64,000 nt of DNA from the IMG/VR virus record IMGVR_UViG_3300027969_002800, positions 1 to 64,000 of that record; one strand, given 5' to 3'. A program made the translations under genes and the position numbers. Shown here piece by piece: positions 42,749-59,975 of this stretch. The notes beneath the pieces were generated by a model that saw only the letters and a program-made list of their open reading frames with translations, had not been told where the DNA came from and did no database searches. Each line of letters starts with the position of its first letter. Position 1 is the first letter of the stretch. Origin of the DNA: a virus.

Positions 42749-45043
42749 ATGAATCAATTTTGCGAAGCTATTCCATGCCCTGTTATACTAAATGCTACTT
42801 GCGTATTCTACGAAGGAGCTAGTTTAGTATGTTCAGGAATCAACACTAATGATACCCTTGAAACTGTCATAGTTAAATTAAATCAAAAACTATGTAATGT
42901 TAGTGGAACATCTGGTACAAGCGGCACTAGTGGGACCAGTGGTACAACTGGTACATCAGGAAGTAGTGGATCTTCTGGCACTAGTGGTTCAAGTGGAACA
43001 TCTGCAACTAGTGGTACCACAGGTACTAGCGGAACTTCAGGGAGCTCAGGATCAACAGGTGATAGATATAAAACATCTTCTACAACAGATTTCACATTAG
43101 GATATGCAGGAACGCTCACCGTTGATACTGGATTAGCATATACAACAGGACAATCTATTATAATAGTTCATGATATTAATAACTATCAAGAATGTGTTAC
43201 TATTTCTTATGATACACTTACAGGTATATTAATATTTGATACACCAAATTTAACTATAGGTGGAGGAGCTTTTACATCATGGACTGTAAATCTTGATGGT
43301 GCTACAGGTGGTGATGGTTCTTCAGGCACATCGGGTACCACTGGTACATCTGGTACATCTGGCTCAACAGGTACAAATGGTACAAGTGGAACTACAGGAA
43401 CATCAGGTAGTACAGGCTCTAATGGTACATCTGGAACTACAGGTTCAAACGGAACAAGTGGCACAACTGGTACTTCTGGTAGTACAGGCACATCTGGTAC
43501 TAGTGGAAGTAATGGAAGCAATGGAACATCGGGCACCACAGGAACATCTGGTTCTAATGGATCTAATGGTACGTCAGGAATAAATGGTGTGAGTGGTACA
43601 TCTGGATCTAATGGAAGTAGCGGAACATCAGGATATGATGGAATAAATGGTACAAGCGGTACCACTGGAACTAGTGGTACAACTGGATCTAATGGAACTA
43701 GTGGTAACACTGGAAGTAGTGGAACTTCTGGTACGACAGGTACTAGTGGTTCATCATCAACTTCTGGTACATCAGGAACTACAGGAACTAGTGGTACTAG
43801 TGGAGTTAATGGTATATCATCAGGACAGGTTTATTATTTTAATGAATCTATCACTCAAACACCATATAAAGAATTTTCACCTATATCAACAAGTGGAATT
43901 CAACAAACTATAAGTGCTACTATTGCAAGTGGTATAACATCAACTATTCAATCATATTTAACACCTTCAACTTATCCAAATATTGCAGTAATACCATTAG
44001 GTGTATGGTCATTCTACTTACACGCATATAAACAAAACAGTAATGCAAGTTTTGATATATTCTGTGAAGTTTATAAAAGAACAACAGGAGGAGTTGAAAC
44101 TTTATTATTTTCAACTGACCCAGCACCTGTAACATCAAATTCACCAAATCCATCAATGATATTATCTGATGGGTTTCAGGGAGGATTTTCAATAAATACA
44201 ACAGATAGAATATTAATTAAAGTTAGAGCAACTAATACATCAAATCAATCACATACAATTACCTTTGTTACTGAAGGAACAACTCATTATTCTTTTGCTC
44301 AAACAACATTAGGTGTAGTTAATAGTTCATCTGGTACTAGTGGATCTTCAGGAACTTCTGGTGGAACTGGTTCGAGTGGAAGTGCTGGAACATCAGGTAC
44401 TAGTGGTAATACAGGATTACCTGGAACAAGTGGGACTTCAGGGAGTAATGGAAGCAACGGAACAAGTGGATTACTAGGATCATTAGCTGTTATAGGAAGT
44501 AGTTCTAACTCAAGTGGAGCTTCATTATCAGGAAATATATTAACTCTACAACCTGCTTCTGCTTTATTTGGAGGTGTTGTTACAACGGGTACACAAACAT
44601 TTGCAGGAGTTAAAACTTTTAGCTCTTCACCATTTGCTCCAACACCAACAATTGGATTAAATGATACTACATTAGCCACTACAGCTTTTGTTAATGCCAG
44701 TATTCCTGGAAATATAGTATATAATATATTAATTACTTCAACAGCAAACATAACTACACAGACAACTGGAACTTCTGGAGGATTATCTTATTTACAAAAC
44801 GGTAGGAATGTAATGATTAATAATAGTGCAACAGCAATTACTGTAGATACAACATCTGCAGTTACAGATTTTATTGCCAGTTATACTAAAGTAGGTACCG
44901 CAAATATAACATTTATTGGTACAGGGATAACATTTGTTAATGCAATTAATGGAGTTGTATTAAGTGGTCTTCCTGGGAGTACTGCTTTATTAGTAAAAAA
45001 TGCATCTAACGTATATTTATCAATTAATAACTTAGAAACATAA
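42749..45043 (+). CDS. Tail fibre-like protein with collagen-like (G-T/S-S/T/N)n repeats
   Basis: Three G-X-Y tracts of SGT/SGS/TGT; Cys-containing N-terminal CVFYEG...TNDTLE module; GTQTFAGVKTF fibre motif. Confidence 0.75.
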   Translation: MNQFCEAIPCPVILNATCVFYEGASLVCSGINTNDTLETVIVKLNQKLCNVSGTSGTSGTSGTSGTTGTSGSSGSSGTSGSSGTSATSGTTGTSGTSGSSGSTGDRYKTSSTTDFTLGYAGTLTVDTGLAYTTGQSIIIVHDINNYQECVTISYDTLTGILIFDTPNLTIGGGAFTSWTVNLDGATGGDGSSGTSGTTGTSGTSGSTGTNGTSGTTGTSGSTGSNGTSGTTGSNGTSGTTGTSGSTGTSGTSGSNGSNGTSGTTGTSGSNGSNGTSGINGVSGTSGSNGSSGTSGYDGINGTSGTTGTSGTTGSNGTSGNTGSSGTSGTTGTSGSSSTSGTSGTTGTSGTSGVNGISSGQVYYFNESITQTPYKEFSPISTSGIQQTISATIASGITSTIQSYLTPSTYPNIAVIPLGVWSFYLHAYKQNSNASFDIFCEVYKRTTGGVETLLFSTDPAPVTSNSPNPSMILSDGFQGGFSINTTDRILIKVRATNTSNQSHTITFVTEGTTHYSFAQTTLGVVNSSSGTSGSSGTSGGTGSSGSAGTSGTSGNTGLPGTSGTSGSNGSNGTSGLLGSLAVIGSSSNSSGASLSGNILTLQPASALFGGVVTTGTQTFAGVKTFSSSPFAPTPTIGLNDTTLATTAFVNASIPGNIVYNILITSTANITTQTTGTSGGLSYLQNGRNVMINNSATAITVDTTSAVTDFIASYTKVGTANITFIGTGITFVNAINGVVLSGLPGSTALLVKNASNVYLSINNLET

Positions 45044-59226: not shown

Positions 59227-59975
59227 TGTTTATTTACAAAATCTTTTAACATTTGTGCATAATCTTTATTCCAATGAGGATTTAAATGAACATCTCCTGT
59301 AGGTATTAGATTTCTTTGTCTTAAGTTTTCTATATATTCACTATGTCTTTGTATGATGTTAGGCTTATCTGCAGTGTCTGTACCTTGTCCAGATTGATGA
59401 TATCCTCTACCACCCCACATATAAAACCAAGAAGCTTCTGAGTCAGGCATTTTTGCATCAATAACATATTCTTTACCAAAGGAATGTATTCTATTAACTA
59501 ATGTTGTATCTCCTCCAGCATTCTCTATAGGACTCTTACCAATTGCTTCCCAAACTTTTTTACTGTATACAATACCTGAGTTACCAATTCCCATTATCTT
59601 TGTTATACTAGGCTCATTGTAATACACACCTGTTTCCCAATGTAAGATGTTAGTATCTTCTTTCCAAAATTTAGCTATGTTGGATAAATGATTAGACAAA
59701 GCTACATCATCATCATCCCATACAGCTATTAGTTCTCCAGAACATCTTTCTATAGCATAGTTTTCTTTATCCCCAATTGTAGGGAATGTTTCATCTAGAT
59801 TATAGATTTTGATTTCTGGGTGATCGTATATTAACTTCTGAAGAGGGTAGTCATTAACTATGATTAGTTCTTTCTTACCTGGATACTCTTGTAGGAGGAA
59901 ACTTTGTATAGCTTCCTCCAGAGTATCTACTCTTCCATAAGTGATGCATTTAGCAGATATGAAAGGATATTGCAT
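59223..59975 (-). CDS. Glycosyltransferase family 2
   Basis: ITYGR...LLQEY...ELIIVND...GELIAVWDDDD. Confidence 0.85.
   Translation of the reverse strand: MQYPFISAKCITYGRVDTLEEAIQSFLLQEYPGKKELIIVNDYPLQKLIYDHPEIKIYNLDETFPTIGDKENYAIERCSGELIAVWDDDDVALSNHLSNIAKFWKEDTNILHWETGVYYNEPSITKIMGIGNSGIVYSKKVWEAIGKSPIENAGGDTTLVNRIHSFGKEYVIDAKMPDSEASWFYMWGGRGYHQSGQGTDTADKPNIIQRHSEYIENLRQRNLIPTGDVHLNPHWNKDYAQMLKDFVNKQ

Follow-up and report, generated by a model that had tools for sequence, protein, structure and literature searches.

Two pairings of glycosyltransferases with Ser/Thr-repeat proteins in a crAss-like phage genome suggest O-glycosylation of its own particle

We analysed positions 1 to 64,000 (hereafter the window) of IMG/VR virus record IMGVR_UViG_3300027969_002800, a virus contig of 116,993 bp with a CheckV completeness of 100%, in which glycosyltransferase (GT) genes occur together with genes for structural-type proteins that carry threonine and serine tracts. 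The phage probably encodes two independent enzyme-acceptor modules that O-glycosylate its own particle proteins. In the first, a GT-A enzyme encoded at 52889 (genes are named by their lower coordinate, Table 1) is paired with poly-Thr proteins; in the second, a two-domain enzyme encoded at 47923 and related to TibC and Aah of E. coli is paired with a collagen-like fibre of (Gly-Thr-Ser)n repeats, written (GTS)n, encoded at 42749. An initial annotation of this DNA had listed four GT genes (47923, 52889, 58579 and 59223), the first with two domains, and all four were recovered as such. It had further proposed two initiating enzymes with different acceptors among the virion proteins, helped by elongating enzymes. 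Of this, the kinship of 47923 to TibC/AAH and the co-occurrence of each initiating candidate with its own repeat type stood, whereas the label HPAT-like for 52889 and the elongating role of the two remaining enzymes found no support.

The GT-A enzyme and its poly-Thr neighbours

The product of 52889 is a glycosyltransferase, as the initial annotation held, because it has a GT-A fold and an invariant D108xD110 metal site; both this motif and H274 are invariant in 55 homologs. Its AlphaFold2 (AF2) model, with a predicted local distance difference test (pLDDT) score of 97, gave Foldseek E-values of about 1e-6, and its structural neighbours included glycogenin (Z 14.5), the Skp1 alpha-galactosyltransferase AgtA (14.2), LgtC (14.0), UGGT (13.4), GlyE (12.7) and the capsid-glycosylating A64R of PBCV-1 (11.0). 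The likeness is one of fold, with 11-12% identity to GT8-like structures. The protein matched no Pfam or NCBIfam family, and a PDB sequence search gave no useful match. Homologs are numerous, with 2733 in a large protein collection and 762 cluster representatives at E ≤ 0.001. We presume that 52889 is a poly-Thr protein O-glycosyltransferase with a GT8-like, retaining-type fold.

Membership of 52889 in HPAT (GT95, Pfam PF23452) found no support in profile searches. An hmmscan of the protein at E ≤ 10 gave no HPAT match, and neither did the HPAT hidden Markov model (HMM) when run against the genome at E ≤ 10, although the control, too, gave a match in 0 of 14 genomes. None of the 55 homologs matched any family in a Pfam scan, and a distant homolog, P0221, provided no alignment-based link. 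In the ESM Atlas, 22 of 30 named clusters near 52889 carry the HPAT Pfam set, which is a language-model lead only.

Proteins with Ser/Thr tracts are concentrated around the GT-A gene. We sampled its clade as 80 IMG/VR loci (gene 65-99% identical, from about 290 stretches among 2.9 million contigs) and defined an S/T-tract open reading frame (ORF) by a run of at least six [ST] residues with at least four Thr. There were 126 such ORFs in the 78.6 kb within 500 bp of the GT-A gene (1.60 per kb), 32 in 150.8 kb at a distance of 0.5-1.5 kb, and 15 in 948.7 kb further out (0.004-0.022 per kb). At least one was found in 76 of the 80 loci, and in 62 it lay no more than 60 bp from the GT-A gene; four loci had none.

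As these 80 loci represent one clade, distant homologs were also examined. The tblastn search with 52889 matched 77 phage records, none of them from a Mycobacterium phage. Eleven cultured phages were examined, with homologs of 22-35% identity, and ten of these had [ST] runs of at least five residues in the adjacent gene or in head or tail proteins: Enterococcus phages phiFL1A and vipetofem, Lactococcus phage 1706, Lactobacillus phages PLE3 and Iacchus, Lacticaseibacillus phage R3.3, Clostridium phage phiCTP1, Staphylococcus phage SA2, Arcanobacterium phage TPWB06 and Chryseobacterium phage MA9V-3. SAC12B is the exception; its tail is of the form (TTV[KA]P)n and does not consist of pure Thr runs. 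In the siphophages the tail-tube protein ends in poly-Thr in eight of eight cases and the head protein in five of eight, and the GT-A gene lies between head and tail genes in all eight, directly 3' of the tail-tube or capsid gene. In phiFL1A, for example, the gene for the homolog, gp51, comes immediately after that for the major tail protein, and both this protein and the major head protein end in poly-Thr. This arrangement recurs in 1706, PLE3, phiCTP1, SA2, R3.3, vipetofem and TPWB06. In the myophage Iacchus two poly-Thr proteins are encoded immediately upstream of the GT-A homolog, and MA9V-3 also has two. The co-occurrence of GT-A and poly-Thr, which the initial annotation had put forward as a check, therefore holds in crAss-like, Firmicute, Actinobacterial and Bacteroidota phages.

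An ORF that overlaps the 3' end of the major tail gene in SA2 (stretch L169, 6667-6930) and TPWB06 (stretch L298, 3220-3426) encodes long poly-Thr. By analogy with SPP1 gp17.1*, a frameshift may extend the tail-tube protein through this ORF into a long, mucin-like form.

Absence of the tract was likewise accompanied by absence of the enzyme. Five phages have SPP1-type tail-tube orthologues without a Thr tail, and GT-A was found in none of their whole records, with a positive control of five out of five for the same search; both GT-A-positive orthologues of this type have Thr tails. The (ACN)6 pattern occurred 15, 5 and 15 times in three GT-A carriers, and not at all in Javan47 or Lbo-JY46. Across 39 diverse records it occurred 383 times in the 1234 kb of the 17 GT-A-positive ones (0.31 per kb) and 26 times in the 1740 kb of the 22 GT-A-negative ones (0.015 per kb; Mann-Whitney p = 2e-6). 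For the converse test we took 80 arbitrary IMG/VR loci with (ACN)9, of which 52 had an in-frame ORF with a run of at least eight Thr. The GT-A gene was present in five of these 52, each time 0-25 bp from the tract gene. Poly-Thr is thus not exclusive to GT-A, while GT-A is almost always found beside poly-Thr.

Within the genome itself, all tract proteins listed in the initial annotation (3298, 4535, 11165, 42749, 52355, 52494 and 53923) are real and exceed chance expectation. Runs of at least five Thr number 12, in seven of 92 proteins, against a mean of 0.63 (maximum 3) in 200 within-protein shuffles, and the (ACN)6 pattern is found 15 times, the reversed control pattern twice. The codons are a mixture of ACA, ACT and ACC, so it is the protein sequence of the tracts that is maintained, and simple DNA repeats do not account for them. 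They take two forms, interdomain linkers and C-terminal tails. The linkers of 3298 and 4535 follow an N-terminal module of 75 residues that is also common to the protein encoded at 5886.

The genes flanking GT-A recur with it. Many relatives have a poly-Thr mini-ORF of 44-57 aa, the counterpart of 52355, some 20-50 bp upstream of GT-A, homologs of 52494 are found in most of the 80 related loci, and 53923 has homologs in 46 of the 49 relatives with enough downstream flank. Conservation is equally wide for the carbonic-anhydrase-like gene 56453 (46 of 49 relatives), whose product shares the N-terminal module of 53923, with 57% identity over its first ~45 residues. Two further Thr-tailed proteins are encoded outside the window in the head/neck block, at genome positions 110428 and 112378. 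The former is a candidate capsid or neck protein on the basis of gene position and PHROG neighbours, and its tail, of the form Cys-Thr5-6...AP...Thr4-5...IP, is present in 117 of its 120 top homologs (76-93% identity). PDB sequence searches with the Thr-tailed proteins 110428, 112378 and 11165 gave no match.

The TibC-like enzyme and (GTS)n fibres

Two Pfam families were detected in 47923, Glycos_transf_1 at residues 173-300 (1.7e-12) and Glyco_transf_9 at residues 538-647. Residues 391-689 match TibC (PDB 4RAP, E = 1.3e-47), and the NCBIfam model TIGR04414 (hepto_Aah_TibC) scores 264 bits over residues 367-694 against a cut-off of 200, which places the domain in the family of bacterial autotransporter heptosyltransferases (BAHT). 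The model for lipopolysaccharide (LPS) heptosyltransferase I reaches just 26.7 bits. In TibC, D110 is catalytic, the D110A variant being inactive, and C339, C342, C358 and C370 form an iron finger, according to the accessible text of PMC4358343. D438 of 47923 aligns with D110, and C648, C651, C667 and C679 align with the four cysteines; all five residues are conserved in 39 of 40 dereplicated phage representatives. These results bear out the TibC/AAH kinship suggested earlier. No autotransporter was found as acceptor and the gene conserved beside 47923 encodes a (GTS)n collagen-like fibre, so we regard 47923 as a member of the family by sequence with a different presumed acceptor. Longer phage enzymes of this type, up to 1599 aa, have additional domains fused to the GT4+TibC core, namely methyltransferase, GT25, GT32-like, polysaccharide pyruvyl-transferase, FkbM and DUF6165 domains. 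These fusions look like a glycan assembly line and agree with a role in building glycans.

The presumed acceptor, 42749, consists in part of Pro-free (Gly-Thr/Ser-Ser/Thr)n repeats, with 91 Gly-X-Y triplets in five runs (11+6+51+6+17). The (GTS)n tract noted in the initial annotation is thus present and is, by sequence, a collagen-type Gly-X-Y repeat. All 15 matches to the pattern (G-T-[ST])3G in the genome fall in this protein, and its non-repeat C-terminus matches the tail fibre family phrog_4209 (4.9e-5). The product of the coupled gene 45043 is a probable fibre tip or binding module, and its Fib_succ_major domain also makes up the C-terminus of 4535.

To describe the neighbourhood of TibC-like genes, 80 loci were taken from the 172 IMG/VR stretches with a TibC-like domain and grouped into 39 clusters at 85% identity. 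In INPHARED, seven records match the fusion and four of them the TibC-like part. A GT4 domain is also present in 38 of the 39 clusters. Collagen-like ORFs, with at least eight Gly-X-Y triplets, occur in 29 clusters; in 28 of these they lie downstream on the opposite strand, convergent as in the window, and in 23 at a distance of no more than 3 kb. The fibres contain up to 955 triplets. Ser and Thr account for 59-94% of their X and Y positions, with Pro at 1% or less, in 27 of 28 TibC-linked ORFs, X being mostly Thr and Y mostly Ser. Collagen-like ORFs of TibC-negative relatives are of the G-(P/I)-Q type with at most 14% Ser/Thr in 11 of 13 cases. Gly-X-Y runs of at least 20 triplets were found in 53 of the 80 TibC loci (1408 kb) versus one of 80 control loci (665 kb). 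The collagen-like ORFs of the TibC-negative relatives (L092-L140, e.g., L093:7406) are small, at about 310-540 aa.

The pairing was also apparent in whole genomes. TibC was found in 17 of 27 clade genomes, comprising 26 large relatives and the genome studied here, and the (G-T-[ST])3G pattern was found in 16 of these 17 versus one of the ten TibC-negative genomes (Fisher p = 2e-5), as the co-occurrence proposed in the initial annotation would have it. Both exceptions are incomplete contigs (75% and 85%). Among complete genomes, five of five TibC-negative ones have no match to the pattern, and five of five TibC-positive ones have 15-175 matches. The pairing is seen with TibC homologs that are 52-84% identical and whose contigs range in size from 5 kb to 326 kb.

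Other glycosyltransferases and genomic setting

The GT2 gene occurs in 24 of the 27 clade genomes, TibC-positive and TibC-negative alike, and the DUF616-like gene is a rare accessory gene found in two. They are the last genes of the replication block on the - strand, which includes PhoH, RecA and dNMP kinase genes. Neither gene co-varies with either repeat type, and an elongating role, which the initial annotation had given them, is therefore a guess: the two enzymes may extend glycans, but their distribution and their location on the replication strand do not point that way.

The genome has a GC content of about 32% and encodes a terminase, a portal and a major capsid protein. The latter matches Pfam Crass_capsid over 485 residues (9.2e-28), in agreement with the earlier designation of this virus as a crAss-like phage. 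In a tblastn search the capsid protein matched one of the 50,697 phage records in INPHARED, Leptolyngbya phage Lbo-JY46, and with 26% identity to this sole relative, the phage represents a lineage remote from the crAss phages of the gut. By its capsid sequence, then, the phage is crAss-like and far from cultured phages. A megablast of the region against the same 50,697 records gave no match. Phage Lbo-JY46 has a cyanobacterial host, is without the GT-A gene and contains no (ACN)6 tract.

The structural and late genes occupy the + strand, where they extend from about 98.9 kb over the contig end and reach about 58 kb in the window, and one ORF of the genome encodes a giant protein of 4320 aa. 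Within the + strand structural block, 7752-8975 (+) encodes an SbcD-like protein of the 'DNA repair exonuclease' family (phrog_704, 1e-49). Genes of the homing or HNH endonuclease type are among those at 17227-17991 and 60747-61460, with a phrog_314 homing endonuclease (1.4e-22) and a NUMOD3 protein. An ORF at 51840-52355 directly follows the endolysin gene, and small, very Lys-rich proteins of 68, 213, 92 and 173 aa are encoded at 55442-58328 (+), between the GT-A cassette and the GT2 gene.

Table 1. Glycosyltransferases, candidate acceptors and associated proteins. Coordinates refer to the window unless marked otherwise.
Product	Coordinates	Strand	Length (aa)	Matches and remarks
Fibre-like protein	3298-4518	+	406	shared 75-aa N-terminal module, 58-aa (ST)n linker, variable C-terminal domain
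Fibre-like protein	4535-5869	+	444	same 75-aa N-terminal module, T7 linker, 37-aa S/T linker, Fib_succ_major-like C-terminus
Virion structural protein	11165-16411	+	1748	phrog_37948, 5.2e-117; three T5-7 linkers near C-terminus
Collagen-like fibre protein	42749-45043	+	764	Pfam Collagen, 2.4e-37; PHROG tail-fibre families
Fib_succ_major + fn3-like protein	45043-47148	+	701	Pfam Fib_succ_major, 6.3e-27; translationally coupled to fibre gene 42749
Bifunctional glycosyltransferase	47923-50013	-	696	GT4-type N-terminal and TibC/Aah-type (BAHT) C-terminal domain; convergent with fibre genes
Thr-rich mini-protein, candidate acceptor	52355-52483	+	42	translation
Candidate acceptor	52494-52868	+	124	T7 linker after Cys35
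GT-A glycosyltransferase	52889-53905	+	338	phrog_4417, 2.4e-54
Candidate acceptor	53923-54156	+	77	49-aa N-terminal module and 28-aa Thr/Ala/Pro tail with three T-rich runs
LCIB-type (theta-class) carbonic-anhydrase-like protein	56453-57463	+	336	Pfam match, 2e-17
TOD1/MUCI70 (DUF616, PF04765)-like glycosyltransferase	58579-59226	-	215	25.2 bits vs cut-off 21.4; profile positions 142-290 of 314
GT2-family glycosyltransferase	59223-59975	-	250	PF00535 Glycos_transf_2, 2.7e-11, 44.1 bits vs cut-off 23.3
Thr-tailed protein	genome 110428-111618		396	head/neck block; highly conserved, 3515 homologs
Long TibC-like fusions	L083:7331-12130, L021:6725-11068, L046:6635-11062 and others			fetched IMG/VR loci

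Proposed mechanism, alternatives and known systems

From the observed folds and families, catalytic residues and co-occurrence patterns, we infer a mechanism in which the tracts are the acceptors. Both modules would act in the cytoplasm late in infection and use nucleotide sugars of the host. The soluble, DxD metal-dependent enzyme 52889 would recognise Thr runs on newly made phage proteins and add O-linked sugars with a host UDP-sugar as donor. Its targets would be the flanking mini-proteins, the fibre-like proteins 3298 and 4535, the structural protein 11165 and the two head/neck-block proteins outside the window. Once glycosylated, their Thr tails and linkers would be extended, hydrated and resistant to proteases, much like mucin. 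The TibC-like domain of 47923 would initiate on Ser and Thr of the Pro-free (Gly-Thr-Ser)n fibre 42749, and the fused GT4 domain would add a second sugar and so extend the glycan. The accessible text of PMC4358343 describes TibC as a dodecameric ring acting processively on a rod-like substrate, and a rod-like collagen fibre would suit a mechanism of this kind; Thr-linked sugars could moreover stabilise a Pro-free triple helix. If incorporated into virions, the modified proteins would provide stiff, protease-resistant, hydrated stalks or a coat.

Several points weigh against this interpretation. Its support comes wholly from gene neighbourhood and phyletic pattern, and the large counts are not made up of independent events, since a single clade contributes most of their GT-A-positive records. 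Poly-Thr ORFs stood without GT-A in 47 of the 52 loci of the converse test. The mini-proteins 52355, 52494 and 53923 are putative virion components, and the AF2 model of the Thr-tailed protein 110428, made with 47 close homologs, has low confidence (pLDDT 47.6) and was not used for a fold search. For the second module, ten of the 39 TibC-like clusters lack a collagen-like ORF in the fetched locus, four of these loci being fragments of 5-11 kb, and no (GTS)n or collagen-like gene was found in the 17.4-kb stretch around the enzyme in Microcystis phage Mel-JY01. Of the four INPHARED records with a match to the TibC-like part, Mel-JY01 is the sole annotated cultured phage. The TibC/Aah enzymes are known, in the accessible text of PMC4358343, to act on beta-helical autotransporters and not on collagen-like repeats. 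Finally, the four sugar-activation families tested (SIS_2, CTP_transf_like, Epimerase and NTP_transferase) are all absent from the phage genome. With SIS_2 and CTP_transf_like missing, any heptose donor would come from the host, which must supply ADP-heptose if the TibC-like domain needs it as TibC does.

The enzymes could instead remodel surface glycans of the host, such as LPS, capsule or teichoic-acid-like polymers, to block superinfection or assist release, with the tracts as unglycosylated flexible linkers. Domains of the GT2, GT4 and GT9 types are indeed typical of envelope polysaccharide synthesis, there are weak NCBIfam matches to enzymes of LPS, exopolysaccharide and teichuronic-acid synthesis, and the GT2 and DUF616-like genes, set beside PhoH, RecA and dNMP kinase and indifferent to both repeat types, would fit such a role. 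We nevertheless consider this explanation unlikely. The TibC-like domain scores about ten times higher on a protein-glycosylating equivalog than on LPS heptosyltransferase I and has retained the iron finger specific to BAHT, the GT-A gene is flanked by head and tail genes in the eight siphophages, and the joint presence or absence of each enzyme with one repeat type would be left unexplained. That same tight link to repeat-bearing structural genes also makes it highly improbable that the enzymes glycosylate phage DNA to evade restriction, as the T4 glucosyltransferases do. Phage GTs often modify DNA, as the accessible text of PMC12619734 notes, and a dNMP kinase is encoded in the genome; however, no hydroxymethylase of the thymidylate-synthase type was found there, the TibC family acts on proteins, and the best structural neighbours of the GT-A enzyme act on proteins or glycans, not on DNA.

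A further possibility is that just one of the modules glycosylates virions, while the other pairing reflects shared ancestry or linkage in a mobile fibre cassette. The TibC-like enzyme could, for example, modify another protein, with the (GTS)n fibre merely co-inherited. The TibC-fibre pair is gained and lost as a unit, like a cassette, so linkage alone could give the co-occurrence, and the ten clusters without a collagen-like ORF are compatible with this account. Against it stand the persistence of the pairing over the whole range of TibC identities and contig sizes given above and its specificity for the Ser/Thr-rich, Pro-free repeat type. We judge it improbable, and favour two modules that both act on the particle.

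To our knowledge, glycosylated phage particles have been measured in mycobacteriophages only. Virion O-glycosylation of mycobacteriophages Che8, Corndog and Myrna (Freeman et al. 2023) is cited in the accessible parts of PMC12619734 and PMC12363180, and the latter adds that the sugars blunt antibody recognition. As in those phages, GTs of the phage are thought to decorate its own particle, and in what these sources convey, the mycobacteriophage glycans are carried by capsid and tail-tube subunits at their C-terminal ends, the same place as the poly-Thr tails in Firmicute phages with a 52889 homolog. Unlike there, the enzymes are unrelated at the level of tblastn, the presumed acceptor is a recognisable poly-Thr tag that occurs as both tail and linker, the hosts and phage groups are others (crAss-like, Firmicutes, Bacteroidota), and there is a second module of the TibC type. 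Phage virion glycosylation as such is thus already known; what appears to be new is the enzymes, the sequence-tag acceptors and the phage groups.

The second module resembles the TibC-TibA and Aah-AIDA-I systems of E. coli (PDB 4RAP/4RB4) in the equivalog match, the catalytic Asp and the four-Cys iron finger of 47923, and in an enzyme gene that adjoins the gene for a long, repetitive, rod-like, Ser/Thr-rich surface protein. It differs in its presumed acceptor, a viral Gly-X-Y fibre in place of a beta-helical autotransporter, and in the fusion of 47923 to GT4 and of its relatives also to methyl- and pyruvyl-transferases. The serine-rich repeat adhesins of streptococci are glycosylated in the cytoplasm by GtfA/B and GT8-type enzymes such as GlyE (PDB 5GVV). 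Long Ser/Thr repeats modified in the cytoplasm are the common feature here, and GlyE is near 52889 in fold, although identity between the two is just 12%; the streptococcal GT8 enzymes serve in glycan extension, not initiation, and their substrates are adhesins exported by the accessory Sec system. Gly-X-Thr-type repeats with O-glycans are found in BclA of the Bacillus anthracis exosporium and in the Thr-galactosylated cuticle collagen of Riftia, where the Thr sugar reportedly lends stability to a triple helix with little hydroxyproline. A similar stabilisation would be attractive for a Pro-free (GTS)n helix, by analogy, whereas the BclA and Riftia repeats contain proline and are modified by different enzymes. 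The plant enzymes HPAT (GT95) and SGT1 (GT96) glycosylate extensins and likewise attach O-glycans to peptides whose sequence is repetitive, extended and rich in hydroxyl groups. In the present phage the acceptor would be Thr instead of hydroxyproline or Ser, and the HPAT HMM matches neither 52889 nor its homologs.

A literature search, with most subscription journals and supplements outside its reach, returned no description of a GT-A/poly-Thr or TibC/(GTS)n pairing. Searches within the same scope on collagen-like proteins, phage and heptosyltransferase found nothing, and those on virion glycosylation in crAss-like phages, TibC in bacteriophages, and poly-Thr or O-glycosylated tail proteins of phages found nothing relevant.

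More tentatively, and with some doubt on our side, tailed phages of several bacterial phyla might share a modular 'tag and transferase' code for particle decoration. A Thr run on a capsid, tail tube or fibre linker would then be a portable tag for GT-A enzymes of phrog_4417, while ring-forming enzymes of the TibC type would thread Pro-free (Gly-Thr-Ser)n collagen and glycosylate it processively, the sugars stabilising it in place of the hydroxyproline of animal collagen. If such a code exists, virion glycosylation would be widespread and predictable from sequence, and no peculiarity of mycobacteriophages.

If the two modules act as proposed, the phages with glycosylated virions would also include crAss-like and jumbo phages as well as Firmicute phages of dairy and clinical origin. 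Glycosylated virion proteins could then be predicted from a genome by means of two new enzyme families and two sequence tags, with a bearing on phage stability, adhesion to mucus and marine gels, immune recognition in phage therapy and the annotation of virion proteins by mass spectrometry. Several GT-A carriers are in culture on hosts that are harmless, namely Lactococcus and Lactobacillus, which makes the idea directly testable. Through the pairing of TibC with collagen, an enzyme family associated with virulence would gain a new class of substrate, and a possible route to stable proline-free collagen would open.

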